A stretch of DNA of 60,850 bases from Patescibacteria group bacterium (GCA_024239015.1 JANBVM010000001.1:1-60850); one strand, 5' to 3'; positions 529 through 25,524 are shown, numbered from the stretch's first letter. Numbers and translations are program-made. The notes: a model not told the origin generated them from the sequence alone.

Positions 529-825
529 ATGGTAAAAACTAAAGAAGAGATTCTCGAGAAACTTAAAAAAATAAAGAAAAAGCTCAAAAGTGATTATATG
601 GTAGAATTAATTGGGCTTTTTGGCTCATATGTAAGCAATAATCAAACTGCTGCCAGTGATATTGATTTTTTAGTAGAATTCGATAAAGAAGCTGATTTAA
701 TTCATTTTATAGCTCTTTCTCGTTACTTAGAAGAAATTTTTAATGCAAAAGTGGCCATTGTTTCAAAACCTAGCCTAAAAGAAGAATTAAAGCAAAATAT
801 TCTTAATGAGGTCATTTATGCCTGA
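529..825 (+). CDS. minimal nucleotidyltransferase (MNT, Pol-beta-type NTase), antitoxin-type component of HEPN-MNT modules
   Basis: 98 aa. LIGLFGSYVSNNQTAASDIDFLVEF carries the G-S ... D-x-D NTase signature, and the size is typical of MntA-like proteins. An ATG at 818 overlaps its 3' end but opens only a 14-codon stub (818..862) where a HEPN/DUF86 partner would be expected. Confidence 0.8.
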   Translation: MVKTKEEILEKLKKIKKKLKSDYMVELIGLFGSYVSNNQTAASDIDFLVEFDKEADLIHFIALSRYLEEIFNAKVAIVSKPSLKEELKQNILNEVIYA

Positions 826-1306
826 GAAATATAAATTTTTTGGATTAATTCAATTTAACTAAATCATTAACTATACTAATCAAGTATCAATAGATACATA
901 GAAAAGAAAAAAATGAAGTAGATTTTAAAGATTTTATTTTTTTACGCTCTGTTGAGTTCAGACATTAATATTATTAGCTAAATAAAGAAAATATCTCAGA
1001 ACTTAGACAGTGGTATGATAAATATTTTCCATATTACGATCTACCATACTTCTAATTTTTTTCGGAGTTTTTCAGGTAAAGAAATCGTTCCTAACCTTAT
1101 AAATATATAAATTAAGAAGATATATATATTTTCTGTTTACTATTGCTTTTTTTATTAAATTCTATAACTGAATCTTAGAAATCTTAAAGTTTTAAATTAA
1201 TAAATCAATATTTAAAGTTTTTTTTTAATGGAATGATTTATAAATCCATAGAAATTAGTTTATTTAAAAAAATAAATTTAAAATAAAAATTAGTTAAAGT
1301 GTAAAA

Positions 1307-1459
1307 ATGACAAAGCATACGAAACCAGAACATAGAAGAAGAACTGAAAATATTAACATGGCAGTTACGAAATCTAAAAAAGAGTTCTTGGAAAACTTAG
1401 CTAAAGAGAAAGAAATGACTGTTTTTGAATATGTCAGAATCAAATTATTTGGAGGTTAA
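1307..1459 (+). CDS. small ribbon-helix-helix-like (CopG/Arc-type) protein, 50 aa
   Basis: Below the ORF-track cutoff. Hand translation: MTKHTKPEHRRRTENINMAVTKSKKEFLENLAKEKEMTVFEYVRIKLFGG. It has a basic tail, a short strand (ENINMAV) and then two helices, which is the RHH layout. No clear RBS. Confidence 0.4.
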   Translation: MTKHTKPEHRRRTENINMAVTKSKKEFLENLAKEKEMTVFEYVRIKLFGG

Positions 1460-1535
1460 AGAAAAATGAACTACATCAGTCATGCCAAAAAAATAAACCC
1501 CCAAAAAAAAAATAAGCAATTTTTGTAAAAATAAT

Positions 1536-2048
1536 TTATTCTTTCATCAATTTATATATTCCATATAATATTAAAGCTGTTAACCCAATGAGTCCTAAAC
1601 TTAAAAGCATATTATATCCAAATAATTCAATTTCTTTTCCTTTCCTACTTTGTTCAATATAATGAATTGTATTACTTAAGCTTACATTTTGATTTTCAGG
1701 ATCGAATTCAATATATTCAAGTCCAGAAATAAAACCTTCTGTCTTTATTCCCTTTTCGACTAAAGGAATAAAATTAGTAAAACCTCGAGCTTTTATCCAA
1801 TATCCTATTTCTTGATTAACAAAACCAGATTCTTTTCCTCTAGAAGTATAAAGAACTAAAAGGTAATCACTAGTCTCAATATTTTCAATTATTTTATTGG
1901 ATAATGGCTTTCCAATTTGATAATCTCTTTCAGCAATGTAAGCCAAAATTCCCTTTGATTTTAAATACTTTTCTAAAGCTACTACTAATTGATGGTCTTT
2001 AGTACTATGCGAAATAAATATTTTTAACATAATCTTCACTTTTTTCAT
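1536..2048 (-). CDS. TIR-like domain protein with C-terminal transmembrane anchor (copy 1)
   Basis: KIFISHSTKD (betaA-type start) and SDYLLVLYTSRGKESGFVNQEIGYW (conserved Glu context) fit TIR/DUF1863-type domains. The C-terminal hydrophobic stretch is LLSLGLIGLTALILYGIY. The ATG overlaps the upstream stop (ATGA). An alternative start is the MLKIF Met at c2030. Paralog of 7928..8431. Confidence 0.6.
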   Translation of the reverse strand: MKKVKIMLKIFISHSTKDHQLVVALEKYLKSKGILAYIAERDYQIGKPLSNKIIENIETSDYLLVLYTSRGKESGFVNQEIGYWIKARGFTNFIPLVEKGIKTEGFISGLEYIEFDPENQNVSLSNTIHYIEQSRKGKEIELFGYNMLLSLGLIGLTALILYGIYKLMKE

Positions 2049-2341
2049 TTTTCATTATTTTTAGATAAAAGATAAATCAGTGCAGCAGCACCTAATCCCA
2101 CAATTGCACCAAGAGCAAAATTCCCTATAGCAGTAAGAGCTGTGCTATTTTCTTCATAACCACAATTAGAACATTTTATATTTTTATCATTTATTTTAAA
2201 ATCGCTCAACTCCCTTCTGCATTTTGGGCAAATAGGTTTAATTTCAGGCAAGTTATCAAGCCCTCTTTTCATTAACTCTTCTCTTGCTTTTTCAAGTTGA
2301 GCGTGCTCAATGTCAGATAAACGAACCATATTTTTACGCAT
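2045..2341 (-). CDS. small membrane-anchored zinc-ribbon protein with RHH-like N-terminus (copy 1)
   Basis: 98 aa. The N-terminus VRLSDIEHAQLEKAREELMKRGL is a strand plus helix. CPKC-x14-CSNC is a zinc ribbon. The C-terminal TM helix is FALGAIVGLGAAALIYLL. Translationally coupled to the TIR-like gene. Paralog of 7614..7928. Confidence 0.6.
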   Translation of the reverse strand: MRKNMVRLSDIEHAQLEKAREELMKRGLDNLPEIKPICPKCRRELSDFKINDKNIKCSNCGYEENSTALTAIGNFALGAIVGLGAAALIYLLSKNNEK

Positions 2342-2597
2342 TTTAATTCACGTGATTAAAAATTTTAAATTTAATGTTATATCGTAAGTATCGATCGTAT
2401 TTATATATTATCGTCTGTAAATTTCTGTATAACAATCAAATTTTTCTTAATAAAAAAGTTCGAAGTTGAAGGGAACTATTAGAGAAACCAAAATTAAATA
2501 TTCATATTGGTTATCTTCCAATAATAGAAAAATTTTAAAATATAAAGAAAAAGAAAAACTAGTATTCAATAATATCAATTAGCTAATTTCTCAATTT

Positions 2598-2612
2598 TTC
2601 GTGAAACGGTTA
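2598..2612 (-). repeat. island motif, form B (TAACCG-TTTCACGAA read on the minus strand)
   Basis: The plus strand reads TTCGTGAAACGGTTA, an exact copy. It lies in the divergent spacer 2342-2872. Confidence 0.9.
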
Positions 2613-2735
2613 CGTGCTGAAAAGTACACTCAAATTGTCTATCTATTGAAAAATATAACCGGAGTTTTTTGTAAATTAAATCTTGGATTATTGAAATTCA
2701 TGATAAAATAAATGTTAAATTAGGTTCTGAATGGA

Positions 2736-2750
2736 TTCGTGAAATAACCG
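2736..2750 (-). repeat. island motif, form A (CGGTTA-TTTCACGAA read on the minus strand)
   Basis: The plus strand reads TTCGTGAAATAACCG, an exact copy. It starts 138 nt to the right of the 2598 copy. Confidence 0.9.
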
Positions 2751-2872
2751 ATAATTATTTGTCATTCGAAAAATCAGTATAGTATTAGTCTCATAAGAAG
2801 TAAATACCTTAATATTTTTATAAAACTCTGATATATTATTTTATAGATATCAAAATTTCATGGAGGTTAAAA

Positions 2873-3382
2873 ATGGTAAAAAAAACTATTTTTAAATTCA
2901 TTCAAGTTCAAAATAAATTAGGATTATCCGATTTAAATGATAGATTAGAACTAGATTTTGATAAAAGATTACTCATTCAGAAAGTTTTTTATTTTTTAAT
3001 TAAATTAGGTTTTGATTTTAAGCTAAAATATAACTTCTATAAGTATGGTCCTTATTCTCGAGAATTAGCTGATATTTATTTTGAATCCTCAGAATTTATA
3101 AGTATGAAAATTCATGAAAATTCAGAATATCATTTTAGTAGTAATGATGAGTTCGCTCTTACTAAACTTAAGAGTCTTTTGGAAAAATGGGGTGAGAACA
3201 CTCAAATTTGGGAATATTATTCAAGTCTCTTATTTATTCATGAAGATATGTATTTTAGAATATGGAACATTGAAAATGTAAAAGCTAAAATTGCTAGAGA
3301 GAAGCATGAACTTTTTGATAGATTCAAATTTGATTCAGTACTCCAAGAATTAAAAGAACTTGGTTTAATAACTAAACATTAA
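2873..3382 (+). CDS. Panacea/SocA-like (DUF4065-type) putative antitoxin
   Basis: 169 aa. LLIQKVFYFLIKLGFDFKLKYNFYKYGPYSRELADIY fits the K-L-x-K-L-L-Y...GP-x motif pair of Panacea domains. GGAGGT lies 8 nt before the ATG. The stop is 1 nt before the next start. Confidence 0.45.
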   Translation: MVKKTIFKFIQVQNKLGLSDLNDRLELDFDKRLLIQKVFYFLIKLGFDFKLKYNFYKYGPYSRELADIYFESSEFISMKIHENSEYHFSSNDEFALTKLKSLLEKWGENTQIWEYYSSLLFIHEDMYFRIWNIENVKAKIAREKHELFDRFKFDSVLQELKELGLITKH

Positions 3383-3383
3383 T

Positions 3384-4787
3384 TTGATTGATGTGAAGCG
3401 AATATTTGACCCCATTTATGGATTAATTGAACTTAATGACATAGAATCTCAAATTTTAGATACACCATTATTACAAAGGTTAAGGTATATAAGACAATTA
3501 AGTTTAGCTGAATTTGTATACCCTACAGCTACTCATAATAGATTTTCTCATTCTTTAGGAGTATTTCATATAACTGATAAAATAGGGAATATATTACAAA
3601 AATTTGACAATAAATTCATGAGCAATTACTATATAGATAATTTAAAGATGGCAGCTCTTTTACATGATATTGGACATTTGCCACTTTCCCATGCACTCGA
3701 ATTTTCTGAAAAAGAAGATGTTTGGAATAGATTACCTTCTTTCTTAAAATTAAATCATGAAGATTTAGGAGTGTATCAGATAAAAAATTCATACTTAAAA
3801 AATATCATAGAGAGTGTTGACGATCGTTATGATATCGATTTGATTTGCAATTTAATACAGGGTAATGATATAGCTGATAACCCAATTTTAAATAGAGTAA
3901 TAAATTGGGAATTAGATGCAGATCGACTGGATTATTTATTAAGAGATACATATTTCACAGGTGTAAAATTTGGTAGTATTGATTTTGATTATTTGGTAAG
4001 TAATTATGAAATATATAAAAATGAAAAACTTGTAGTTAACAAAAAAGCTTCAAGATCCATTGAAAATTTTCTAATTGCTAGATTCTCTTTATATGATCGA
4101 GTTTATACGCATAAAAATATATCCTATTATAATTTCTTCCTAAAAAACGTTACTAGTTTATTAATCGAAAATAGTCTATTTCCTTTATTTAAGAATGACT
4201 TAACATTTGATGAAATAATTTTAGATGAAGAAAAATCTGAATTAATTTATGAGTTAACTGATTTTTCATTATATGATAAACTCCTTCAATATTATTATCA
4301 TCAAAGGACCTTAGAAGAAAAAAGTGAAAGTATCTTACTAAATTTAAATTCAGTGTTATTTCGGAAAAAGAATCATAATATTTTTCAATATCAAAAAATA
4401 ACAAACCAAAAATCTGGCATTATTGAGTTGGTTGATGATAAAGTACTAACTTTAATAGAAAGTTTAAATGAAGAGTATAAAAACCAGATATATTTAGATA
4501 ATCCTAAAAATAGATTTACAAAATATCAATCAGTATTTTATCCTTCGATTGGATTAGATCAAGAAAAAATAAATGAAATTAAAGAACAAGAACTAAAATC
4601 AATCTGGATTACATCGGATAACGGTAATCCTCAATTATTTTACGAATGGACTGGAACTTATTTTAGAGAATTATATTCTTTTAAAAATATAAAATACTTA
4701 ATATATCTTGAAAAGAATAAAGAGAAATTAGCGGAAAAATATAGATCAATTGAAAATGATATAAAGAATCAGATAAATAAACTTTAA
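3384..4787 (+). CDS. HD-domain phosphohydrolase, SAMHD1/dGTPase-like (COG1078-type)
   Basis: 467 aa, TTG start. RLRYIRQLSLAEFVYPTATHNRFSHSLGVFH, AALLHDIGHLPLSHALE and DADRLDYLLRDTYFTGV form the canonical H...HD...D motif set of dNTP triphosphohydrolase-like HD proteins. Confidence 0.8.
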   Translation: MIDVKRIFDPIYGLIELNDIESQILDTPLLQRLRYIRQLSLAEFVYPTATHNRFSHSLGVFHITDKIGNILQKFDNKFMSNYYIDNLKMAALLHDIGHLPLSHALEFSEKEDVWNRLPSFLKLNHEDLGVYQIKNSYLKNIIESVDDRYDIDLICNLIQGNDIADNPILNRVINWELDADRLDYLLRDTYFTGVKFGSIDFDYLVSNYEIYKNEKLVVNKKASRSIENFLIARFSLYDRVYTHKNISYYNFFLKNVTSLLIENSLFPLFKNDLTFDEIILDEEKSELIYELTDFSLYDKLLQYYYHQRTLEEKSESILLNLNSVLFRKKNHNIFQYQKITNQKSGIIELVDDKVLTLIESLNEEYKNQIYLDNPKNRFTKYQSVFYPSIGLDQEKINEIKEQELKSIWITSDNGNPQLFYEWTGTYFRELYSFKNIKYLIYLEKNKEKLAEKYRSIENDIKNQINKL

Positions 4788-4822
4788 AGGAATTCTTTTT
4801 TATTAATGATTTGATATTTCAA

Positions 4823-4837
4823 TTCGTGAAACGGTTA
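4823..4837 (-). repeat. island motif, form B
   Basis: The plus strand reads TTCGTGAAACGGTTA, an exact copy. It lies 36 nt after the HD gene stop. Confidence 0.9.
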
Positions 4838-4960
4838 TCAAATTTAAAATAGAAATTAGAGCTCTGTTTCAACCGAATAGCGAATTCTATTAATTTAAAT
4901 CCTGATAATTTTAAACCAAATAATAATATTATAATGAAAAAGAGTACAAAGGAACTTGAA

Positions 4961-4984
4961 TTCGTGAAATAACCGTTTCACGAA
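4961..4984. repeat. complete 24-bp palindromic form of the island motif: TTCGTGAAA-TAACCG-TTTCACGAA
   Basis: Perfect 9-bp inverted arms flank a 6-bp asymmetric spacer. It contains form A (4961-4975, minus sense) and form B (4970-4984, plus sense) overlapping. It starts 138 nt to the right of the 4823 copy. It lies in the convergent spacer between stops at 4787 and 5040. Confidence 0.9.
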
Positions 4985-5039
4985 CTCACTTTCTTCTAGC
5001 TTGATATCTTCAAATCATTCTTAATCGTGAAAATTCTAT

Positions 5040-5882
5040 TTATTTATATCCATAAAAAACTTTCCAGAATTGGTCATCGAGAGGTATATTTCGAGGAAAA
5101 ATCATCATGCCATATCCTTTAAGTGTATAACCATCATGCCTATAAAACTTGTCTTCAATTAAAGTCATCAAATCATCACAATAGTCATTAAAAAATGCAC
5201 CTGGGCTTAAACCAAAATACTTCATAGCATATCTTCTCACCAAGTATGCTACGATGTCTGCTAATTGAACACCATTATGAATTATTGAATCAACAATAAA
5301 AGGTGTTTCTATAACTTGCTCGGGAAATTCATCCCAACCTTGTCCCGTACCATATTTTATGAAAGATTCTATTTCGTGACGTTTTTGTTCATCAAATTCG
5401 GGATCAACCGAATCCATTACTATCATTATATGCTGGTCTTTTTTTGGATGATTATCCATTACATAGCGGTTTAAACGTTCAATTAATAGTTTAAATGCCC
5501 AATTTGCTACTCCTACGTAATTTCCCTTCATAAAATGTTCCTTATGTACCACTATTGATACAATTTTTATAAACAATTTTGATAAAAAGGAATATATTTC
5601 CCGCCAGATACTTCTTAATTTATCGTCATCATCTCCAATAGACTTATAATATCCTTCCTTACGCGAAATTTCTTTCATGTGAAGTTCAAAATCTCCTGGT
5701 GGATCTTTCTGAAGTCCTTTATTTCTCACAAGATCCCAGATTTTACGTTTTAAATTTTTAATTTCCTGATGAATCCAATTCCAATATTGTTCATGAATAA
5801 TTAGAGCTGTTAAAACATAGAGTTTATTTTGTTTATTGTTAATATCCTTATTACCTGATTCATCAGCATAAGCGAAATACAT
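5040..5882 (-). CDS. DUF3800-family protein
   Basis: 280 aa. The N-terminal YADESGN and the C-terminal GVQLADIVAYLV are the two hallmark motifs of DUF3800. Confidence 0.6.
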   Translation of the reverse strand: MYFAYADESGNKDINNKQNKLYVLTALIIHEQYWNWIHQEIKNLKRKIWDLVRNKGLQKDPPGDFELHMKEISRKEGYYKSIGDDDDKLRSIWREIYSFLSKLFIKIVSIVVHKEHFMKGNYVGVANWAFKLLIERLNRYVMDNHPKKDQHIMIVMDSVDPEFDEQKRHEIESFIKYGTGQGWDEFPEQVIETPFIVDSIIHNGVQLADIVAYLVRRYAMKYFGLSPGAFFNDYCDDLMTLIEDKFYRHDGYTLKGYGMMIFPRNIPLDDQFWKVFYGYK

Positions 5883-6062
5883 TAAACTCTAACCACTTGA
5901 TTGTTATTTTAGTTTAATCTTTCACAATATTTATAGAATCTCCTTTCTTGGAGTTTTTATATAGGTTAAAATTTGGAAAGGAACAAGAATGAAAAAAGTT
6001 GATTTACTACCAAAATTTGCCAAAAATTTCGATAGGATTTTATAGACAGTGAAAGAATAGTT

Positions 6063-6740
6063 TTAAACACGAAGTCTTCTTCTATTTGGGTCTTTAATAC
6101 CAATATAACGTCGAATTCCAGAATGACCTCCTTCATTATATACATACCACAATCCCTCATCCCTTATTTTGTATTTTAAAGAGCAATTTTTACATTTTAT
6201 ATCGATATAATCTACTTTATCTTGGAAATCGATTTCTCCTTCACATTTAATGCATTTCATTTTTTCTTTTAATAGGAGCAATCTAAGACTTTCAATAAAG
6301 ATTAGATAGTTCTTGTTTATCATCGAATTAATTACATCCCAGGTTGAGTCCTTCAATGAATTAGAATTAAACACAGATATAGTTGAGCGTGAAGGTTTAT
6401 AGAATGAGATTTTTGGGTCAAAATATTGTCCGAGAGATCTTACAGATATGATATATATTTCTTTCTTTACTAAATCTGCTTTTATTACCTTGGCTGTTAG
6501 GTCAACTTGTTTAAAATACTTTTTGTTTTTAAACCAGTAAAGCATATAATCATAAGATTTTATTAACAATTTCTCAAATACTCGAAATAATATTAATGTT
6601 CCCAATGCTGATAGAATTGAGTATAAGACGATTAATGGATTAAGTGAATCTGTAAGAAAATTAAAAAGCCAAGTGAAAAGGCCTGAAAACAATGCACCTA
6701 TTACTACATATGTCAAATCATTTTTATCTGTTTTTTCCAT
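6063..6740 (-). CDS. hypothetical membrane protein with C-terminal zinc ribbon
   Basis: 225 aa. Two N-terminal hydrophobic helices (VVIGALFSGLFTWLFNFL, IVLYSILSALGTLILF). CIKC-x17-CKNC lies near the C-terminus. Confidence 0.5.
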   Translation of the reverse strand: MEKTDKNDLTYVVIGALFSGLFTWLFNFLTDSLNPLIVLYSILSALGTLILFRVFEKLLIKSYDYMLYWFKNKKYFKQVDLTAKVIKADLVKKEIYIISVRSLGQYFDPKISFYKPSRSTISVFNSNSLKDSTWDVINSMINKNYLIFIESLRLLLLKEKMKCIKCEGEIDFQDKVDYIDIKCKNCSLKYKIRDEGLWYVYNEGGHSGIRRYIGIKDPNRRRLRV

Positions 6741-6874
6741 CTTAATTCCTCAATAGTCCCTTTCTATTTTTACATTAATGTGTATAAAATTAAAATACTA
6801 TTATTAAGTGAATCTTTACCTTTTTTCATTATTTATTCTTTCAAATCCTTATTGTATTTTTATCAGCAAGATTT

Positions 6875-7186
6875 TCATAAAGGAATAATCTTAACACTAT
6901 GACTATACTGCTTTTTCATGTAGTTAGTTATTTCGAAATTTTTTTTTTGATATTCATCACTTAACTTAATTAAATGTCCTTGAGTGGGAATAATAGAAAT
7001 GAATGCTTTAATCTCGTCTTTAAAATCACTTACATTAATTTTATTCTGATTATCCACAAGCATTTTAAATGAATCAATTTGTTTTTGAATGAATTCAATA
7101 TTAGTTTCTTCTTTATTAATCTCTTTATACCAATGATACTTAACAAATGGAACTTTAATTTCTACATCGTGTCTTTTTTTTATCAT
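6875..7186 (-). CDS. hypothetical protein
   Basis: 103-aa ORF with ordinary composition. No motif recognised. Confidence 0.4.
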   Translation of the reverse strand: MIKKRHDVEIKVPFVKYHWYKEINKEETNIEFIQKQIDSFKMLVDNQNKINVSDFKDEIKAFISIIPTQGHLIKLSDEYQKKNFEITNYMKKQYSHSVKIIPL

Positions 7187-7382
7187 TATAAATTATTTAC
7201 TCGTTTTTATTTTATTTTATTTATATAATATTCACTATATAAATAAAAGAGTCACTCTTATAAATCATTTTATTAAACCGGAACCAAAATCACAATATAT
7301 AAATAAATAGAGGGTGCAGATTTACTAATTTTTTGTTTTATAGTTTTAAAATTTACATTAAAATCTTAAAAAAAATATAATT

Positions 7383-7397
7383 CGGTTATTTCACGAA
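7383..7397 (+). repeat. island motif, form A
   Basis: CGGTTATTTCACGAA, an exact copy, in the divergent spacer 7187-7613. Confidence 0.9.
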
Positions 7398-7613
7398 TGC
7401 GCACCTATCTCCTTTTTCAACTTAACCTTTTTTAAGTCATCATATCATATCTCTCCTCTCTAATTAAATTAATTATAGTTTTTCATATACTTCCCCTTAA
7501 TTTTTAGCTTTTTAAATAAAAAAAATCGGTTGTTATACAGGAATTTACTATTGATAATACTTAAATACGATTGATGCTTACAATAATACATTAGATAGTA
7601 AAATTAATATGAT

Positions 7614-7928
7614 GTGAAAAAAATGCGTAAAAATATGGTTCGCTTGTCTGATATTGAGCATGCTCAACTTGAAAAGGCGAGAGAGGAACTTATGAAGAGG
7701 GGACTTGAAAATTTACCTGAAATTAAGCCTATCTGCCCAAGTTGTAGAAGTGAGTTGGATGATTTTAAAATTAACTCAAAATATATAAAATGTTCTAATT
7801 GCGGTTATGAAGAGAAGAGCACTTCACTTACTGCTATAGGAAGTTTTGCTTTTGGAGCAATTGTAGGATTAGGTGCCGCTGCACTAATTTACCTTTTATC
7901 TAAAGACAAGAAAGAATCACAAAAGTAG
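7614..7928 (+). CDS. small membrane-anchored zinc-ribbon protein with RHH-like N-terminus (copy 2)
   Basis: The ORF track starts at GTG 7614. By comparison with copy 1 (MRKNMVRLSDIEHAQLEKAREELMKRGL...), the ATG at 7623 is the likelier start. CPSC-x14-CSNC plus a C-terminal TM helix. Confidence 0.6.
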   Translation: MKKMRKNMVRLSDIEHAQLEKAREELMKRGLENLPEIKPICPSCRSELDDFKINSKYIKCSNCGYEEKSTSLTAIGSFAFGAIVGLGAAALIYLLSKDKKESQK

Positions 7929-8431
7929 TGAAATTTATGTTAAAGATATTTATCTCTCATAGCACAAGAGATTATAAATTAGTTACAGCATTAGAAGTAT
8001 ATTTAAAAATAAAAGGTATATTGACCTATATTGCTGAAAATGATTGTCAAGTTGGAAGATCCTTATCAAGTAAAATAATTGAAAATTTAGAGAAAAGTGA
8101 TTACTTTTTAGTTCTATATACTAATAAAGGAAAAGAATCAGATTACGTCAATCAAGAAATTGGATATTGGATAAAAGCTCGCGGTTTTACTAATCTTATC
8201 CCTTTAGTTGAAAAGGGAATAATACCAGAAGGCTTCTTATCTGGATGTGAATATTTTGAATTGGATCCTAAAAATCATAATATTGGTTTGGATAAAATTG
8301 TTGATTACTTAGTACAAAAGAAAGAGGAATATGAAATAGAATTATTTGGAGATAACATAGTTGTAGGTTTAGGACTCTTAGGGCTTACGGCTTTGATACT
8401 ATATGGAATATATGTAGTTGTGAAAGAATAG
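7928..8431 (+). CDS. TIR-like domain protein with C-terminal transmembrane anchor (copy 2)
   Basis: KIFISHSTRD and SDYFLVLYTNKGKESDYVNQEIGYW, with C-terminal LGLLGLTALILYGIY. The GTG start overlaps the upstream TAG by 1 nt. An ATG at 7937 is an alternative start. Confidence 0.6.
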   Translation: MKFMLKIFISHSTRDYKLVTALEVYLKIKGILTYIAENDCQVGRSLSSKIIENLEKSDYFLVLYTNKGKESDYVNQEIGYWIKARGFTNLIPLVEKGIIPEGFLSGCEYFELDPKNHNIGLDKIVDYLVQKKEEYEIELFGDNIVVGLGLLGLTALILYGIYVVVKE

Positions 8432-8645
8432 AACAATTATTATACCTTACATTTGAATAGGTTAAAAGCAAATTTTAATTTCTCATTTTGAATTACCTAA
8501 TAAATAAATATGTGCTAAAACCTTTTGTGAAATTGCTTAGAAACAAAGAATTTGAGTTCAGTTTAAATTGGTTGTAATTATAATTATATTAATTAACCAA
8601 TTACAAGTGAACTAATTAATTAAGGGTAAAGAAATCCAAGATCTT

Positions 8646-9836
8646 TTGGAAAAATTTGTATTGGACCCTGATTTAGCTACTTTAGTAGCTAATCTCAATG
8701 TATTTAATGTAATGAATGTGTTAAAAGTTGAGACTTCTGAAACCGTCTTCTCATCATTTTTGGCTTGGTTACTTAACCCGAGGGAAAATCATGGTCTCGG
8801 ATCTTATTTTCTAAAATATTTCTTGATGAGATGCGCGAAAATTTCAAATATTTTTACCGTCATTGACATTGATAAGTTAAATCTAAGTAATAGTATTGTT
8901 AGAACAGAAGAAAATTTTCATGGTACAAGAGCGGATATAACAATAAGAATTGACGATATAAATCTAATGAAATTTGGATGCTTAATTGAAAATAAAGTAA
9001 AATCCACAGAAGGCGAAGAGCAAACTAAGAATTATGTGAAATATTCAAAGATAAAATATCCAAAATATGATTTTATGTATGTTTATCTTACTCCTTTTGG
9101 TGAAGATGCCGATTCCAAAGAGTTTATATCAGTAAGTTATGAATCTGTTAAAGAATTATTAGTTCAAACAATTAACGCAAATAAAGATAATTTAAATGAA
9201 GAAATTTTGAATTTAATACAGCATTTTTTATATAATTTAGAGGAAAATATATTGAATAAAGGAAAAATTGTAGATTTATGTAAAATAATTTATGAAAAAC
9301 ATAGAGAAGCAATTGAGGCTATTATTGCGAATAAGCCACAGCATATTAAAATAATTGAAGAGGAAATCAAGGAATTACTTATTGATTTACCAGGTGAGTG
9401 GATGACGCACCCAACAAAGACCGATTGCTACGTATTTAAGAAACAATGGTTAGAAGATTTTCGTGAATTTAATATAGGAAATCTAGTTCCATTTTTCTTT
9501 TATAACGTACACTCTTGGAATAGCGAATCATTGTATATCGCGGTACAGTTATACATAGACAGAACAAAAGAATGGAAATTAGATGTTAGAGAATTATTTA
9601 CAGAAATTATTGAAAATAAAATAGACAAATCTGGTGTAAAGCCATTTCTCTATAATAAACAAAATATAGCAAAAAAAATCAAAGATATCGTAATAAAAGA
9701 GGGTTATGAAAATGACCAGGACTTGAAAGATGTAGCTTTGAAAATGAAGGATTTAATTGATGCAACAATCGGAGTTATTGATAACACCGTTGAAGAATTA
9801 AAAAATAAGCTCTCTAATTTGAAAAATGAAAAATAA
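8646..9836 (+). CDS. PD-(D/E)xK nuclease superfamily protein (PDDEXK_4/pfam14281-like)
   Basis: 396 aa. FSSFLAWLLNPRENHGLGSYFLKYFL, RADITIRID and LIENKVKSTEGEEQTKNY match the conserved N-terminal block and the D...E-x-K core of that family. Confidence 0.55.
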   Translation: MEKFVLDPDLATLVANLNVFNVMNVLKVETSETVFSSFLAWLLNPRENHGLGSYFLKYFLMRCAKISNIFTVIDIDKLNLSNSIVRTEENFHGTRADITIRIDDINLMKFGCLIENKVKSTEGEEQTKNYVKYSKIKYPKYDFMYVYLTPFGEDADSKEFISVSYESVKELLVQTINANKDNLNEEILNLIQHFLYNLEENILNKGKIVDLCKIIYEKHREAIEAIIANKPQHIKIIEEEIKELLIDLPGEWMTHPTKTDCYVFKKQWLEDFREFNIGNLVPFFFYNVHSWNSESLYIAVQLYIDRTKEWKLDVRELFTEIIENKIDKSGVKPFLYNKQNIAKKIKDIVIKEGYENDQDLKDVALKMKDLIDATIGVIDNTVEELKNKLSNLKNEK

Positions 9837-10072
9837 GGATCTTTTTCCCAATATTTAGTGGCCTTATCCTACTCTTGGAGAGACATCCTTCCTCCAATAC
9901 ATAAAATTTCTGTTATGACTTATCATTTCAGATTTCTAATAAAATTATTGAGCTCGTACATTATAAGCCTTAACAAAATCTGAAGATTGGCAAGATCAAC
10001 ATTGCGTTGTTAAAAATTTAGAGCTTTTAGAATTCATTAATTCGCTCAAATTCAAGAGATTGAGATAAAATT

Positions 10073-10838
10073 CTTCAAAAAATGTCCATTACAAATTATT
10101 AACCCATGAGCGTATGTTAAGTTATATATCTTAAAAGAAAATAAAGATAAGCATGTTAAACTTAATAATATTCTGAAATATAAGAAAGTTCTTTTTCTAA
10201 CTGTTATAATTGTGCTAGAAATTATTTTATTAGTTTTATTTACAATCCTGTTTATTACAACTAACATAGAATTTTATAAACTTATAGTTGAATTATTAAG
10301 AAATTTTATAATATTAACCAGTGTAGTAACCGCTTTAACAATCCCATTTGTTATGAAAGATATTGAAGAAAAGAAAAGAGAAGTGGAGTTAAGAGATCGA
10401 ATAGAAACAGTTATCAATGAACTTAAAAATTATTTTGAAATTATTATCTCTTCTAAATTTGAAGAACTCCCAAAAAAAAATCTTTACATTCATCCTCAAT
10501 TTCAATTTTTTAAATCCATTGGTAGGAAAGAACCTGAATTCTTAAAGAAACTCGGTATCGATATTTCAAGTTATACTAGTACTTCAAGAAGTGGAACTCA
10601 ATCTGAAGGAGGTAGTTTAATTATCCTAAACATTTATAGATTACGTGGTGGTTATCAACCAACTCTTATTTTTATAAGCACAGAAAATGAATTTTCGGAC
10701 TTACCGGATTCGTATGAAATTCTTTTAAAAAAAATCATTGAAAACGCAGAAAAATTTTTTTCCGTAACATTAGATAAAAATTTATGCTCCTTATCAGATG
10801 ATCTCAAATCAGGTTATTTAGAAGTAACAAAACGTTGA
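10073..10838 (+). repeat. direct repeat copy 1 (~770 bp: gene plus ~90-140 nt upstream), partner at 25543..26315
   Basis: The upstream block AAATTATTAACCCATGAGCGTATGTTAAG matches AAATTATTAACCCAATAGCGTATGTTAAG, and homology continues through the CDS. Proteins are about 80% identical by eye. Confidence 0.8.
10212..10838 (+). CDS. hypothetical membrane-anchored protein (paralog of 25629..26315)
   Basis: 208 aa from GTG. The frame is open from 10110 and still encodes the paralog N-terminus (HVKLNNILKYKKVLFLTVII versus MIKINDILKYKIVLFLFVII), but the paralog ATG aligns with CAT here. One N-terminal TM helix. Confidence 0.5.
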   Translation: MLEIILLVLFTILFITTNIEFYKLIVELLRNFIILTSVVTALTIPFVMKDIEEKKREVELRDRIETVINELKNYFEIIISSKFEELPKKNLYIHPQFQFFKSIGRKEPEFLKKLGIDISSYTSTSRSGTQSEGGSLIILNIYRLRGGYQPTLIFISTENEFSDLPDSYEILLKKIIENAEKFFSVTLDKNLCSLSDDLKSGYLEVTKR

Positions 10839-11083
10839 ATTATACATAAAAAATTTAGCTACAATATACCTAGCGAGATTTTTCATAATTCCCGATGCTG
10901 AAACTGTCTTGGTGACTCCTTTTGAATCAATTCAAGATATATCTAACTATGTCAATTTGACACCATCAAATTCAACTTATGAAATCCATATAGATCCTGT
11001 TAATTATACTGTGGATGAAACTCCGCGGAACTTAAATCAATTTTTAAATAATTATGAACAAGTTAGAGTGTAAATCTTAAAAA

Positions 11084-11097
11084 TTCGTTAAACGGCT
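11084..11097 (-). repeat. degenerate island-motif copy (form B-like)
   Basis: The plus strand reads TTCGTTAAACGGCT, against TTCGTGAAACGGTT. It is intergenic. It is the only copy right of 4984 with this polarity, apart from bare arms. Confidence 0.35.
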
Positions 11098-11383
11098 GGT
11101 ACTTAACTCATTTATCACGAGTAATTGTAAAGCTACTACTAATATCAAAGAACAAATTTGGGTGTCAGAAGTGTCAATTTCGTTCAAGGATGGGAAATTT
11201 TTCGCAATCAGATTAAAAAAAAAGTAAATTAATCCAATAGTACTTAATCACTAATCATTCTCAAGAGATTCAATATTATTCAAGCAAACATCAATTCTAT
11301 TATATATTTGTTTTTTCAAAGTTCCACTAAAACTAGGAGCAATTGTTAGAAGATCGAATAACTCCTCTTCTAATTTAATTATT

Positions 11384-11899
11384 TCATATTCTTTTCTTCG
11401 AGATTTCATTAGCTATTAACTCACATATTTTTTCTGAACTAATATTTGGACTTAATGTAATTCCAATTCCCTTTAAAATCATAAATTCAATCTTTCGGTC
11501 GTTTATCCATTTATAAGGATTTTTATCAAGTATCTGATCATAATAATTTATGAAGTTGTCCATCGAAATAATCCAACAAAATTCTTGCTTAAGAGCAAAA
11601 TTCAATATAAACTCGTCAGCTACCTTACTAGATTCTATAATTATTCCTTCTTCTAGCAATCCCCTAAATTCATTTTGTTTATCTATTTCATTGAGAAGAT
11701 TTGGGTCGCAAATGGGAAATGTCCTATGTTCAGAGAAACCCAATCCATTCAAATGATTTAACAATAATTTTATATCCCCAAATCTTGGATTTTTTGTTCG
11801 ATTATAACGATGTCGAGCCACATTATTTAAATCAATGCAAAGGGGAAATTGAATTAAAAATGGCAATTTTCGAAAAATACTTTCTAACATAAAGATCAA
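11384..11899 (-). CDS. NYN/Zc3h12a-like ribonuclease domain protein (putative)
   Basis: 171 aa. LCIDLNNVARHRY (IDGSNVA-like), PICDP and ADEFILNFALKQEFCWIISMDNFINY (D-x-F...IVSND-like) follow the Zc3h12a/NYN acidic-residue pattern. Confidence 0.45.
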   Translation of the reverse strand: MIFMLESIFRKLPFLIQFPLCIDLNNVARHRYNRTKNPRFGDIKLLLNHLNGLGFSEHRTFPICDPNLLNEIDKQNEFRGLLEEGIIIESSKVADEFILNFALKQEFCWIISMDNFINYYDQILDKNPYKWINDRKIEFMILKGIGITLSPNISSEKICELIANEISKKRI

Positions 11900-12026
11900 T
11901 AGTTAAGATTATATTTAAAACAATGTTTATTACATAACTATTTGACGTTCTCATGGATCAATTATAAAAAAATATACACATCCATTTTACATAAGCTTTT
12001 TAAATTGTATTCATCTATTTTTACTA

Positions 12027-15000
12027 ATGTCAATCGAAAAAGTTATTGGGAATATTATTGAAATTTTAAAAGAATTTTATGATTTAGATTTAATTCAAAT
12101 AGAAGCATTGAAAAATTCTGATGATAAATTAGTAATCTCTAAAGAAATTCTTAAAATCCTATTTAAGAATAATATATCTTCTGTAAGGAACGAAAAAAAG
12201 GATAAAAAGGAAGAAAAGAAAAAAATAAAGCGGTATACATCTCATTGTACTTTAAGACATAGATTTCCTAAATTTTTAGCGAAAGCAAAACAAGAGGAAT
12301 TCATAGAATTAGTTATAGAATTACTAGCAGATTGTCAACTGCATATAACTATAATAATTGGTGGTGGGAATACTAATTACTTCTATATTTCGGGTTTAGA
12401 ATCAATAATTAATCTTCTATTGAATATAGATTTAGATGGTATTTTTGAAAAAAAAAAAATTAAAGAGATGTTTGATAAGCCTTGTTTAATCTACTTTAAA
12501 GAAGGTTTTATGGAAAAAATCTTTGGTCCTGACGGATTACTAAAAAAAAAAGGATTTTCCATTCCAAAATTTATTGAAACTGTAAGTTTACAAAATGAGT
12601 TTTCTAGACAGAATGTATACAATTGGAAAAAAGGAGGTTATTTTCCTGTTAATTTCTTTAAAATTTTTATGATTCGATTTGAACAATTTAACGATTACTA
12701 TAGATATATAGATTATGTAAAGATTGGAAATTCAAATAAAATTTCAAAAGATTTATTAAATAAAATTTTTGAACAAATAAAAAATTTTGAAAAGTATATC
12801 AGTCATTCAGAGCTTAATGAGATTTTTAAACAATTCAATATTGTTCAAAGATTAAATATAATTGAAAAATATGATGATTTAATTAAGAATGTCCAAAATG
12901 AGAGAGAAATTAAATATTTGGATTATGTTGAGTTAATTAGATCTAAATTTGATATTTCAGACGATAGAACGTTAATAAAATCTGTTGAATTAGTAAATTT
13001 TAAGTCTTATAAAAGAGAAAAGATTGATTTTGAATCAGGAATTAATATATTATATGGCAAAAATGGCAGTGGAAAAACGTCATTGATCGAAGCCGTATTA
13101 TTTGCTTTATTACGATTGCATCCCCAACATTCTTTATATTATAATCCTGATCCTTCAGAATCTAGGAGTCCCGCTTATATTTTTTTACTAAACACTTGGC
13201 TTATACGAGCCGGGGAAGAGGTTTGTGAAGTTAAATTGACTTTAAAAATAAGGGAAAAGGAAATAATAATCGTCAGGAGTATTTCTAGAGATTTAACTCA
13301 AGAATTAAAAATATTTGATGGGGATGAAGAAATACCTCTTATATCCTTTAAAAAAGATCCAAATATTCCATCTTTGGTGATCAATTCATCCGAAATAAAA
13401 TTATTACATCTTGACAAAGAAGAGTGTCTTGAAGAGGCTCAAATTTATTCTGAAAATCAAGAACTTTATACTGAGTTTATATTCAGTGAATTTGAAAAAC
13501 GTGGACTATTTTTTGAAAAGAACGAAATTTTTTCCTCATTTTTTAATGAATACCACTTTTTCTGGGATTGGGATGAGATAAATAAAAGAAAGCGTAAAAT
13601 AAAAAATTACTATAGGAATAAATTCCGAATGAATTATTTATACAATTTAATCAAGGATCTAAAAAGAAAACGAATAAAATTACTGTGTAATCAAGCGAAG
13701 TTAATCTCCTCATTGAAAAAAAACTTGGATGATATGGAGCTCTATACTGATATTAATGAAAATAAATACTATAAAATTACTTCTGGAGAATGTATTAAAT
13801 GCAATGATATATGTGAAAGTGAAGATGGTGACAGATATCATTTTAACGAGTTACTGGAACAAGGTTATATTAGTAAAGATAATTTTTTTAAGACTTACTA
13901 TCCTGTTGAGACTCACCATGGAACAACTTGTCAGAAATGTGGAGCATACTATTGCGATTATCATCATCAATGGATGGATTATGATTGTGAAAAATGTGAT
14001 AATGACTTAGAAGCTAACTTATACAGAAGAAGAGAATTACATGTGTTACCTTCTCAGTTTTTGAAAATTCTTAAGTTTTCTTCCAATATCGATGAAAAGA
14101 TCTATGAAGAAATCTATAGAGACAATTATAACCAATTTAAAAGAATTGTAAAACAAGAGAAATATCATCCTTTATTAGTTGAGAATTTTGATCTAGAACT
14201 AGATAATCACTGTTTTAATGAAATTTCATTAATTTATGAACTTTTAATCCATCATTATACTTATATAATCGAATCATTAAAATTTCTATTATTAGGAGGA
14301 CAGGAACCGAATTTAAATTCACTTATAAAAAACATCGAAACGTTCAATAAGAGAGATAAGATAAATCCAAATATAGATTATATTAATCATATTGTATTGA
14401 TAATTATCTTTTATATCCAGAATTTAATCTCAAACAATTCAACAATTTTAATTAGGCTTGATTTATTGATAAAAGATACTATGAAAAGTTGTTATAACTC
14501 TTCATCTCAAATTCACCATTTATCATCTTCCTCTATCGAAACCTCAATGTATCGTATTCTTTATAATACAATAAATCTCTTGAAAAGTCCTTTATTTAGT
14601 CGCATTGATCACCTAATCGAAGCCCACCAAGGTGATATTGATGATTTTTTGCAAATTTATGAAAAACACTTTCACAATTCTCTCTCAAAAAGATATTATG
14701 GATTTATATATGGTGAAATTAAGATAGTGAAGACACCACAGAAAGATTATCATCCAAATATAATTTATTATGGCGAATATGATATTCAAAAATATCTTGA
14801 GACTGATTTTAATGTATTTGTTACCCAAGTTGAAAATGTAATGAAAATAATAAGTTGGGTAAAGAAAGTTTCAGAGAAATTGAAAAAAAATACTGAAGAA
14901 ATAGAAAATCTTGAAGATAGGATTAATTTTATCAAAGAACATTCTGCTCTAATTTATAAAAATGTGTTTATTAAATTTTTAAATGAGGAATTAAAGAGAT

Positions 15001-15380
15001 TGGCTCCTAAAATATTTAAGGAATCAAATAAATTTTATGGTTTTCTAGATGAAGATAGTTTCCATAAAATACAGTTTCAAAATGGAAAAATCGCACCCCT
15101 CAACATACTTAGCAATGGGGAAAAGAGCAAGTTCTTTTTAGCTCTCATTTGTATTTTAGCCAACCTCTCAAATAACAGCTTATTCTTTTTAATTGACGAA
15201 CCTAATGAATTATTGGATACTGAAAATATTAGTATCATCAAGGACTTTTTCTCACCACTTTTCAGGACTAAACAATTGATTCTTTGTACTTATATCAAGA
15301 AATATCTCGAAACAGAACCAACTCAGAAATTTGAGGTTAGAAAACATTTGGATGGGACATCATATATCGAAGAGAAATAA
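12027..15380 (+). CDS. Rad50/SMC/RecF-like ABC ATPase with ~320-aa N-terminal extension and central Cys cluster
   Basis: 1117 aa. VELVNFKSYKREKIDFESGINILYGKNGSGKTSLIEAVLFAL is the SMC_N head with Walker A. LSNGEKSKFFLALICILA is the signature motif and FFLIDEPNELLD is Walker B, both at the C-terminus. The long helical middle carries CIKC...CQKCGAYYCDYHH...CEKC. Confidence 0.7.
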   Translation: MSIEKVIGNIIEILKEFYDLDLIQIEALKNSDDKLVISKEILKILFKNNISSVRNEKKDKKEEKKKIKRYTSHCTLRHRFPKFLAKAKQEEFIELVIELLADCQLHITIIIGGGNTNYFYISGLESIINLLLNIDLDGIFEKKKIKEMFDKPCLIYFKEGFMEKIFGPDGLLKKKGFSIPKFIETVSLQNEFSRQNVYNWKKGGYFPVNFFKIFMIRFEQFNDYYRYIDYVKIGNSNKISKDLLNKIFEQIKNFEKYISHSELNEIFKQFNIVQRLNIIEKYDDLIKNVQNEREIKYLDYVELIRSKFDISDDRTLIKSVELVNFKSYKREKIDFESGINILYGKNGSGKTSLIEAVLFALLRLHPQHSLYYNPDPSESRSPAYIFLLNTWLIRAGEEVCEVKLTLKIREKEIIIVRSISRDLTQELKIFDGDEEIPLISFKKDPNIPSLVINSSEIKLLHLDKEECLEEAQIYSENQELYTEFIFSEFEKRGLFFEKNEIFSSFFNEYHFFWDWDEINKRKRKIKNYYRNKFRMNYLYNLIKDLKRKRIKLLCNQAKLISSLKKNLDDMELYTDINENKYYKITSGECIKCNDICESEDGDRYHFNELLEQGYISKDNFFKTYYPVETHHGTTCQKCGAYYCDYHHQWMDYDCEKCDNDLEANLYRRRELHVLPSQFLKILKFSSNIDEKIYEEIYRDNYNQFKRIVKQEKYHPLLVENFDLELDNHCFNEISLIYELLIHHYTYIIESLKFLLLGGQEPNLNSLIKNIETFNKRDKINPNIDYINHIVLIIIFYIQNLISNNSTILIRLDLLIKDTMKSCYNSSSQIHHLSSSSIETSMYRILYNTINLLKSPLFSRIDHLIEAHQGDIDDFLQIYEKHFHNSLSKRYYGFIYGEIKIVKTPQKDYHPNIIYYGEYDIQKYLETDFNVFVTQVENVMKIISWVKKVSEKLKKNTEEIENLEDRINFIKEHSALIYKNVFIKFLNEELKRLAPKIFKESNKFYGFLDEDSFHKIQFQNGKIAPLNILSNGEKSKFFLALICILANLSNNSLFFLIDEPNELLDTENISIIKDFFSPLFRTKQLILCTYIKKYLETEPTQKFEVRKHLDGTSYIEEK

Positions 15381-15488
15381 CACATTAGATAATAGATAAA
15401 ATATTTACACTAAACTCTGCAGCGTCTAAAAAGTTTTTTAATAATTTGATATTTAAAGTATGAGATATTATGAATAGAGTGGAGATAT

Positions 15489-15833
15489 ATGATAAATTTA
15501 GATATTTTAGAAAATTTAAAAGCAATTAAACAAAGAATACTAGCCTTATTAATAACAAATGATTTTATAACTGATTCTTCTTCAATAGAAGATGAACGGT
15601 CAATGAACTGGAATTTTTACCAAGAAAATAAAGAATTCATAGATATAATTGATGGAATACTAGAAAACATGAAAGTATTAATCATACCTTCAGTAGAAAA
15701 TAAATCACAAATTCTCAAAATAATCAATTGGATACAAAATACCAACTATGATAATATTTCATTAGAAGAGATTCAGGATTATTTAGAAGAACGAACTATT
15801 GATAAGTTAGAATTAGAAAATCGTTTTCAGTAG
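15489..15833 (+). CDS. hypothetical acidic protein
   Basis: 114 aa. GTGGAG lies about 6 nt before the ATG. No motif recognised. Confidence 0.45.
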   Translation: MINLDILENLKAIKQRILALLITNDFITDSSSIEDERSMNWNFYQENKEFIDIIDGILENMKVLIIPSVENKSQILKIINWIQNTNYDNISLEEIQDYLEERTIDKLELENRFQ

Positions 15834-25125: not shown

Positions 25126-25412
25126 GAATTAATTTGACAGATAAAACAAAGATGTGAACCAATTAAAATAAAACGATTAGTTGGAATAATAATTTCTAAA
25201 TCAAGTAATTTTTGAGCAAGAATTTTATTTTCAGCATAATCCTTGAGGATAAATTCATCTGATGCAAGTTCTACTGAATTACACATGATAGAGAGCTCAG
25301 CTAATGGCTCCTCGTTATAATTATAAGCAAAAATTGCGAGTTGACCATTTGAATAATGCGTTTTTTGTAGTTTACTATTGAGCGTTATTTGGGTATTTAT
25401 CATTTCTTTCAT
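25122..25412 (-). CDS. hypothetical small protein
   Basis: 96 aa, with a convergent 4-nt overlap with the helicase gene end. A faint resemblance to DUF4313-type proteins (YSNGQLAIFAY...EPLAELS) is not trusted. Confidence 0.35.
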   Translation of the reverse strand: MKEMINTQITLNSKLQKTHYSNGQLAIFAYNYNEEPLAELSIMCNSVELASDEFILKDYAENKILAQKLLDLEIIIPTNRFILIGSHLCFICQINS

Positions 25413-25509
25413 AAATCATACTTATTTCATTCTTTATAAATGAAAAAAGTGTATTAAAAAACTGATTTCTTATAGTAAGTTTTTGTTAAGAAACTAATAT
25501 CACAGTTGA

Positions 25510-25524
25510 TAACCGTTTCACGTA
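25510..25524 (+). repeat. island motif, form B variant
   Basis: TAACCGTTTCACGTA (14/15), in the divergent spacer 25413-25628, about 20 nt left of the 25543 repeat boundary. Confidence 0.8.

Follow-up and report, generated by a model that had tools for sequence, protein, structure and literature searches.

TIR domains are immune hardware common to organisms from bacteria through humans, and the central mechanistic question they pose is how their self-association stays off and is then switched on. The locus described here occupies positions 1536-2341 of a 60,850-nucleotide (nt) stretch of DNA (GCA_024239015.1, JANBVM010000001.1:1-60850; hereafter "the window"), where a gene for a small zinc-ribbon protein is followed by a gene for a TIR protein, and each product ends in a single hydrophobic helix. 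Do these two genes form a unit, and is that unit one of the TIR defence systems which already have names? We find that the TIR assignment is robust and that the pairing is real, unnamed and narrow; a joint function is predicted from sequence.

An initial annotation of this DNA had proposed a two-gene, membrane-tethered TIR system present in two copies, and the open reading frame (ORF) positions it gave for both copies are correct. The features are listed below, with protein lengths in amino acids (aa) and transmembrane (TM) helices as predicted.

Positions 2045-2341, minus strand: copy 1 small-protein ORF, 98 aa
Positions 2162-2230, minus strand: copy 1 small-protein zinc ribbon, four cysteines (C38, C41, C57, C60)
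Positions 2063-2119, minus strand: copy 1 small-protein Gly-rich C-terminal hydrophobic helix (aa 75-93), with the tail KNNEK
Positions 1536-2048, minus strand: copy 1 TIR ORF, 170 aa, opening at the ATG at 2048
Positions 1536-2030, minus strand: copy 1 tail-anchored TIR read from MLKIF, 164 aa
Positions 1809-1811, minus strand: codon of the copy 1 TIR catalytic-position Glu, E80 (E74 when counted in the 164-aa form)
Positions 1554-1610, minus strand: copy 1 TIR TM helix
Positions 2342-2456, minus strand: copy 1 conserved upstream (putative promoter) region with an A/T-rich, TATA-like ATAAATA box, 73% identical to 7509-7623
Positions 7509-7622, plus strand: copy 2 conserved upstream region, with a TTAAATA box at 7571-7577 and GTGA 7 nt before the ATG
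Positions 7623-7928, plus strand: copy 2 small protein read from its ATG, 101 aa (a 104-aa ORF opens at the GTG at 7614)
Positions 7734-7802, plus strand: copy 2 small-protein zinc ribbon
Positions 7845-7901, plus strand: copy 2 small-protein hydrophobic helix
Positions 7928-8431, plus strand: copy 2 TIR ORF, 167 aa, opening at the GTG at 7928
Positions 7937-8431, plus strand: copy 2 tail-anchored TIR read from MLKIF, 164 aa
Positions 8156-8158, plus strand: codon of the copy 2 TIR Glu, E77
Positions 8357-8413, plus strand: copy 2 TIR TM helix

The second copy is a genuine duplicate. Positions 1537-2456 and 7509-8430 form an inverted repeat whose arms are 73-83% identical at the nucleotide level (TIR gene 77%, small gene 83%, the 115 nt upstream 73%). 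All three parts are contained in the repeat, so the duplicated unit is a putative promoter plus two genes. A hidden Markov model scan of all window ORFs found exactly two members of each family. The G+C content of the window is 28%, and no Rfam families or tRNAs were found in it.

The larger protein is a TIR protein. Pfam TIR_2 (PF13676) matches copy 1 with E=6.7e-15 (56.1 bits) and copy 2 with E=5.8e-14 (53.1 bits), against a cut-off of 28. An AlphaFold2 (AF2) model built on 34 homologues, with a predicted local distance difference test score (pLDDT) of 86.5, has a beta-alpha core at residues 1-113 followed by one continuous helix (114-163) with a hydrophobic end. Its best Foldseek matches in the PDB (probability 1.0) are SARM1, Hydra TRR-2, MAL, TIR-STING, SPARTA TIR-APAZ and Cat1. 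SARM1 is the top structural match, yet sequence identity with it is only ~16%. By sequence, the closest solved structure is Cat1 (CRISPR-associated TIR 1, PDB 9mud; E=3.8e-6), a filament-forming, NAD+-degrading TIR protein. Cat1 has a CARF sensor and belongs to type III CRISPR, whereas the window TIR has no CARF domain or CRISPR link. In sequence alignments, the Glu of the window motif VNQEIGYW falls opposite that of AbTir 'WTNYEL' and Cat1 'WCWDEL', and this residue is invariant across the 34 homologues, as are F5, S7, H8, S9, D12, A33, S68, V71 and E105. The protein therefore has a TIR fold with a catalytic-position Glu, as first annotated, and not another flavodoxin-like fold. By analogy with TIR enzymes of this type, it would be an NADase.

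The hydrophobic helices are equally clear. Each of the four window proteins has one C-terminal hydrophobic 19-mer (Kyte-Doolittle means 2.03-2.19; 2.14 for the copy 1 small protein) and a tail of 5-8 aa, in line with the single helix originally described for each. A single hydrophobic helix at the extreme C-terminus, combined with the absence of a signal peptide, is what a tail anchor would look like, and both proteins are accordingly predicted to insert into the membrane. Across the TIR family the helix is found in 58/58 members and lies within the last 35 aa in 57/58. The 15 aa ahead of it are basic (mean +2.0) and the tail after it is ~5 aa. A basic linker before the helix is the pattern expected of an N-in tail anchor, which would place the TIR domain in the cytoplasm. 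The two window TIR proteins share 68% aa identity, with their differences clustered in residues 101-140 (alphaE and the juxtamembrane linker). Phage collections (50,697 records) contained no homologue of either protein, the only match in the plasmid collection was a 30%-identical generic TIR, and IMG/VR gave one TIR at 30% identity.

Do the two genes belong together? We compared the window with homologue loci, labelled L001-L031. The pair recurs in L008, where the two proteins have 88% and 85% aa identity, and in L014, L015 and L016, where they have 81% and 70%. In L014 and L015, which were recovered from one metagenome, the flanking genes differ but a 1175-bp block is common to both loci at 97% identity; it begins ~245 nt ahead of the small gene and ends ~120 nt beyond the TIR stop codon. 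Trees of the two genes give the same grouping, ((copy 1, L008), (copy 2, L014)). The ratio of nonsynonymous to synonymous substitution (dN/dS) is 0.09-0.14 for the small gene (copy 1 vs copy 2: 0.09) and 0.23-0.30 for the TIR gene (0.30), with dS of ~0.6-0.9. Ratios this low at such dS mean that the window copies are two old, selected subtypes and not a recent duplicate. The pair thus behaves as a ~1.2-kb cassette, i.e., putative promoter plus two genes, which occurs in at least four different defence-island contexts. Its co-inheritance is real and confined to one narrow lineage. L014 itself is from a close relative of the window genome, because its positions 1-2147 and window positions 23376-25522 hold a NERD-UvrD gene that is 91% identical; the cassette is sited elsewhere there.

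Two sequences at the cassette edges are also shared. The motif CGGTTATTTCACGAAT is conserved at the 5' edge (window 7373-7398 and 2735-2760; L015 7745-7771), and a ~128-nt segment found 3' to the cassette in L014/L015 (L014 8804-8931) is located upstream of copy 1 in the window (2595-2722). Both may mark the ends of the cassette or serve its mobility. A search for terminal inverted repeats around the cassette gave weak matches only (27 nt at 74% in AT-rich DNA), and we do not claim them.

How the two genes are joined depends on where the TIR protein starts. Translational coupling had been proposed from overlaps between the genes, and the overlaps do exist in the DNA: ATGA in copy 1 and TAGTG in copy 2. 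However, TIR homologues all start M(L/V)K(I/V)FISHS, NCBI products are 164 aa long, the motif AGTGAA(A/G)WTWATG is conserved at the MLKIF ATG in copy 1, copy 2, L014 and L008, and the overlap ATG of copy 1 is missing in L008, its closest relative. The MLKIF ATG is therefore likely the real start, and the spacers from the small-gene stop to it are 14 nt in copy 1, 8 nt in copy 2, 8 nt in L014 and 15 nt in L008. The two genes are tightly linked but probably do not overlap, the overlapping starts being unused; co-transcription is likely and overlap-dependent translational coupling is doubtful. Upstream of the small gene, the copy 1 region aligns with the corresponding regions of L014, L015 and L016, and this conserved segment may act as the promoter. 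A scan for sigma-70 promoters/terminators was uninformative (9 sites vs 9.1 expected).

The small protein consists of an N-terminal helix, a Cys4 zinc ribbon and a Gly-rich hydrophobic helix. It has no curated family in Pfam, NCBIfam or PADLOC, where it draws only sub-threshold matches to zinc-ribbon models, but a PDB search with the family profile matches S27ae/eS31 ribosomal zinc ribbons (E=1e-4), which supports the CxxC...CxxC ribbon first read from the sequence. There are 14 close relatives. Grouped at 50% identity, the wider family amounts to 88 clusters out of 1.8 billion representatives, with proteins mostly ~95-135 aa long and of the same head/ribbon/hydrophobic-helix layout, although some relatives lack the ribbon. 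In a broad alignment G27, C41, C57, C60 and one Gly of the hydrophobic helix are invariant, and C38 is present in at least 90% of sequences. The two window copies have 86% aa identity. The AF2 model has helices at 10-29 and 74-97 with a poorly defined ribbon between them.

The head of this protein matters because the initial annotation had read it as a ribbon-helix-helix (RHH) domain, and an RHH head would suggest a type II toxin-antitoxin (TA) system in which the small protein would bind DNA, repress its own operon and, as the antitoxin, counteract the TIR toxin. The small gene does come first, its N-terminus ('MVRLSDIEHAQLEKAREELMKRG') resembles an RHH strand and first helix on inspection of the sequence, and ahead of copy 2 the TATA-like box lies between two direct repeats of TACnATTGAT. 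The RHH reading was nevertheless rejected: no RHH family was found in Pfam or NCBIfam at E<=1 and no RHH chain in PDB profiles at E<=10, and AF2, at low confidence (pLDDT 67), shows a single helix at 10-29 that leads into the zinc ribbon, with no second RHH helix. As an operator, TACnATTGAT is not enriched (43 matches vs 38.7 expected). A membrane-anchored DNA-binding antitoxin would also be unusual, and orphan TIR-TM proteins (L001-L007, L030, L031) are tolerated without this antitoxin. We therefore regard a type II TA system as very improbable.

What might the pair do instead? Our preferred reading, held tentatively and by analogy, is that the TIR protein is a tail-anchored NADase effector of abortive infection and that the small protein is its lineage-specific membrane co-factor, the two travelling in a mobile ~1.2-kb cassette. 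With its Gly-rich TM end, the long helix would keep a cytoplasmic, catalytic-type TIR on the inner face of the membrane. By analogy with SARM1, AbTir, Cat1, SPARTA and TIR-STING, the TIR would be inactive while dispersed. Infection would lead to TIR self-association in the plane of the membrane, which would create composite active sites that consume NAD+, and NAD+ consumption would in turn cause growth arrest or abortive infection. The small protein would adjoin the TIR by helix-helix packing and either restrain or trigger its clustering, i.e., behave like an antitoxin or like a sensor. Both TM helices share small-residue motifs of the type GLG...AL(I/L)xY (GLGAAALIYLL vs GLxGLTALILYG), and the similarity of these Gly/Ala-rich helices makes helix-helix contact plausible; the two proteins may interact physically, and the small protein may inhibit, nucleate or sense.

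Precedents exist for a catalytic TIR tethered by a single TM helix, namely SARM1 and Dictyostelium TirC (PMC13142454). The TirC tether keeps in check an NADase that is toxic without it (PMC13142454), although there the TM helix is N-terminal, the organism is a eukaryote and no partner gene is present.

Several observations weigh against this reading, the first of which is that each family also occurs without the other. Beyond the loci that keep the pair (L008, L014, L015 and L016), TIR-TM proteins are orphans, with no small-protein homologue nearby, in L030 (67% identity), L031 (58%) and, at ~50% identity, Lokiarchaeota L001/2, Odinarchaeota L003 and marine sediment L004-7. Because the TIR-TM is mostly partnerless, the small protein is not needed for TIR tolerance or action. 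Small-protein homologues at 58-66% identity, for their part, adjoin a Bles03-family protein, tiny soluble ORFs or nothing obvious. The idea of a self-contained two-gene unit therefore stands in that the pair travels together, but not in the sense that either family depends on the other. Furthermore, a TIR that depletes NAD+ cannot be distinguished by sequence from one that produces a signal, and the structure model of the small protein is poor (pLDDT 67). Finally, the C-tails of the small-protein family are basic (mean +2.2) while the segment ahead of the helix is neutral to acidic, and ~15 distant members have Arg/Lys-rich tails of 28-46 aa (+10 to +12) after the helix (among them P0085, P0089, P0118, P0122, P0126, P0127, P0143, P0147 and P0160). 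By the positive-inside rule, such tails would argue for a C-in orientation, which is poorly compatible with a simple tail anchor.

A tail-anchored TIR that is able to stand alone explains the many orphans and agrees with the defence given by lone TIR proteins in E. coli (PMC11350192). The small-protein hydrophobic segment could also be re-entrant. On another account the two genes do not work together at all: the TIR-TM defends as a one-gene module, and the gene beside it, for an unrelated small membrane protein, was captured in the mobile cassette of one lineage. Each family is independent at 50-67% identity, distant small-protein relatives occur in non-defence or heterogeneous contexts, and single short TIR proteins suffice for defence in E. 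coli (PMC11350192). We consider this account unlikely, since the 8-15-nt spacing with its conserved ribosome-binding-like motif leaves no promoter-like gap between the genes, the conserved upstream region was duplicated along with both of them, their trees are congruent under strong purifying selection across dS of 0.6-0.9, and the small family is similarly tightly coupled to another tail-anchored protein.

That other protein, here called partner B, is an unannotated family of 120-150 aa with the motif HxDRVDP..P(L/I)GHL..D(S/A)P and a C-terminal TM helix. Searches of Pfam, NCBIfam and the PDB gave it no match. It lies directly downstream of small-protein homologues at three loci:

L011, positions 8294-8740: partner B
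L013, positions 8282-8650: partner B
L027, positions 5091-5471, minus strand: partner B

In L011, a Thermoplasmatota metagenome-assembled genome (MAG) whose small protein is 59% identical, the small gene has a 4-nt overlap with the gene for this unrelated 148-aa tail-anchored protein (HKDRVDP...GHL...DSP). In L013 (Nitrososphaerales), a ribbon-less small-protein homologue precedes a 122-aa relative of the L011 protein, and L027/28 provide a third, weak case. The repeated position of the family upstream of partner B suggests that its job is to partner tail-anchored proteins. Further small-protein relatives adjoin other small TM + zinc-ribbon proteins. Identity to the window small protein is 55-66% for homologues with other neighbours.

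Partner B and the basic C-tails also bear on a different view of the pair, as a split Toll-like receptor in what is probably an archaeon. Here the head/ribbon of the small protein would face outwards and sense the cell surface, TM-TM contacts would make the cytoplasmic TIR assemble and fire, and in other archaea small sensors of this family would act on different tail-anchored effectors (partner B). Basic C-tails across the small-protein family suggest the N-out/C-in orientation that this requires. Set against it, the head and ribbon are highly charged and there is no signal peptide, which argues against export. We think a split receptor is very doubtful.

The orphan loci offer some neighbours of their own. 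In L031 (1479-3840), the orphan TIR-TM follows a PycTM gene, a 236-aa ORF and a gene for a 111-aa protein. The 236-aa ORF matches no family and is cyclase-like by sequence reading only. A 64%-identical copy of the 111-aa protein adjoins the orphan TIR-TM in L030 (2185-2526), so it may be an alternative recurrent partner of TIR-TM proteins.

Is the pair a known system under another name? The initial annotation had held that no named system fits and that no known TIR partner is adjacent. The second claim is supported: among ORFs of at least 100 aa at 529-15833, plus the nucleotidyltransferase (NTase) at 529-825, we found no SIR2, SLOG, Macro, cyclase, STING or pAgo. The ORFs scanned there encode the NTase, a DarG-C-like protein, an HD/dGTPase-like protein, DUF3800, the PD-(D/E)XK protein PDC-S26 and an SMC-like ATPase. 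The first claim is right by the features tested, but it overlooked the closest analogue, Rst_2TM_1TM_TIR, which is from a P2-like phage AC1 hotspot (Rousset et al. 2022, PMC9122126) and has been experimentally validated as anti-phage (PMC9122126). Both combine a TIR with small TM proteins, have no soluble enzymatic effector, are mobile and reside in a hotspot/island. However, the phage system has three genes and the window cassette two, and the small protein matches no PADLOC TM-partner model (E<=1) and so does not qualify as a 1TM/2TM partner. The phage system is also bacterial/phage-borne, whereas the window family is mostly archaeal, and the text consulted mentions no zinc ribbon (PMC9122126).

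Thoeris is the other obvious comparison, as it is a two-gene TIR operon of defence islands (10.64898/2025.12.03.692087, PMC11204291), its ThsB models give the window TIR its best system scores, and its partner can carry a TM helix. Types II, VI-VII and predicted types include TM effectors (10.64898/2025.12.03.692087, PMC11204291), and a TIR with an adjacent gene in a defence island is currently treated as candidate Thoeris (10.64898/2025.12.03.692087). In a Thoeris-like pair, the TIR-TM would sense infection and make an ADP-ribose-derived messenger, and the small protein would be the effector, oligomerising through its glycine-rich helix and breaching the membrane. The best PADLOC matches of the TIR are indeed ThsB models (E~1e-10; 1.7e-10 and 7.6e-10), the field defaults to this reading for a TIR with a TM neighbour, many predicted effectors being TM proteins (10.64898/2025.12.03.692087), the validated phage AC1 system joins a TIR with TM proteins (PMC9122126), and the small protein has a Gly-zipper-like helix.

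We nevertheless consider a Thoeris-like pair improbable. The ThsB models detect the generic TIR fold, so their matches reflect only that common fold; the Pfam ThsB_TIR score is 19.6, under its cut-off of 21.2. The partner has none of the ligand-binding domains that would be expected of a Thoeris effector (SIR2-SLOG, Macro, SLATT or DUF6650-type), and Pfam, NCBIfam and PADLOC show no recognisable SLOG, Macro, SAVED, STING or CARF domain in it. It also pairs with non-TIR proteins. Lastly, the window TIR is itself tail-anchored and its family mostly orphan, features more in keeping with an effector than with a soluble sensor of the ThsB type.

The remaining systems can be dealt with briefly. For Pycsar, there is no cyclase or cyclic-nucleotide-monophosphate-binding domain in the cassette or the scanned neighbours, and hence no adjacent cyclase. 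The TIR proteins pass the 24.7-bit cut-off of the Pfam model CAP12-PCTIR_TIR, with 31.4 and 25.4 bits, in a region where TIR_2 matches more strongly. The scanned neighbours include no CD-NTase, STING/SAVED fusion or short pAgo with APAZ, so CBASS, TIR-STING and SPARTA do not apply either, the window protein being a TIR plus TM helix only. The PADLOC TIR-TM model PDLC03016, which stands for the TIR component of Rst_2TM_1TM_TIR, matches copy 2 weakly (E=0.0048; TIR residues 1-82, 82/293 model positions) and copy 1 not at all. Stand-alone short TIR proteins (E. coli TIR-V, -VI and -IX; PMC11350192) are similar in being little more than a TIR domain. They require the catalytic Glu and act by abortive infection, and some TIR systems have TM domains (PMC11350192). 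These systems are bacterial, however, and none described there has a C-terminal tail anchor with a zinc-ribbon membrane partner. By the features tested, the pair is outside Thoeris, Pycsar, CBASS, SPARTA and Rst_2TM_1TM_TIR and is most like the stand-alone/TM-associated TIR systems. In full-text literature searches, no paper turned up that describes a zinc-ribbon membrane protein as the partner of a tail-anchored TIR.

If the preferred reading, i.e., a tail-anchored NADase effector with a membrane co-factor, is validated, it would contribute a TIR defence module of only ~1.2 kb, a so far unannotated family of ~100-aa proteins without a Pfam/NCBIfam model, and an archaeal example that bears on the origin of membrane-proximal TIR signalling. 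TIR proteins with a tail anchor as their sole addition come mainly from archaeal MAGs, Asgard-type ones among them, and this architecture suggests that they are controlled by being confined to the two dimensions of the membrane. The small protein, present in some cases and found elsewhere with another tail-anchored partner, may be a membrane adaptor that can be swapped. Should it prove irrelevant, what is left is simply a tail-anchored member of the known stand-alone TIR defence class.

The surroundings are those of a defence island, as originally proposed. Every long locus examined is one, with genes for nSTAND3, an OLD/Gabija-like ATPase, Shedu SduA_C, restriction-modification (RM), NERD-UvrD, PDC-S26 and HD/dGTPase-like proteins. 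The window island also has DUF3800, an SMC-like ATPase, an N6/N4 methylase, nSTAND3, NERD-UvrD, SNF2 plus a DUF1156 methylase, Mrr and an HD-CE/HATPase protein, and the L014/L015 neighbours are nSTAND3, OLD-type ATPases, SduA_C, Eco57I-type RM and further TIR proteins.

Some individual neighbours deserve mention. Between the cassettes, a 169-aa protein (window 2873-3382) matches the C-terminal part of the antitoxin DarG (PADLOC E=1.8e-7), and its gene is tightly coupled to a following gene for a 467-aa HD/dGTPase-like protein (3384-4787); the two may be a separate defence or TA module. Also between the cassettes is a 225-aa protein (6063-6740, minus strand) with two N-terminal TM helices and a C-terminal CxxC...CxxC ribbon. 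This ribbon resembles that of the small protein (hmmsearch E=0.0013; a 36-nt repeat, 2163-2198 vs 6184-6219, at 75%), and an analogous multi-TM + zinc-ribbon protein is encoded directly upstream of the orphan TIR-TM in Odinarchaeota L003 (1323-1988). Near copy 1 are a minimal nucleotidyltransferase (MNT-type; 529-825, Pfam NTP_transf_2 E=8e-14) and a 50-aa ORF (1307-1459) that resembles a small RHH-type antitoxin by eye; both are probably TA-like genes separate from the cassette. The gene immediately after copy 2 encodes the PD-(D/E)XK protein (8646-9836), a match to the PADLOC candidate system PDC-S26 (E~1e-54). An ADP-ribosylglycohydrolase (47090-48079, Pfam E=7e-64) is encoded in the same island, ~39 kb from copy 2; it could be related to ADP-ribose metabolism.

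The taxonomic label of the source MAG may be wrong. NCBI gives it as 'Patescibacteria group bacterium', yet the named homologues of either protein with more than 45% identity are all archaeal, the named relatives being Loki-, Odin- and Promethearchaeota, Thermoplasmatota, Bathyarchaeia and Nitrososphaerales.

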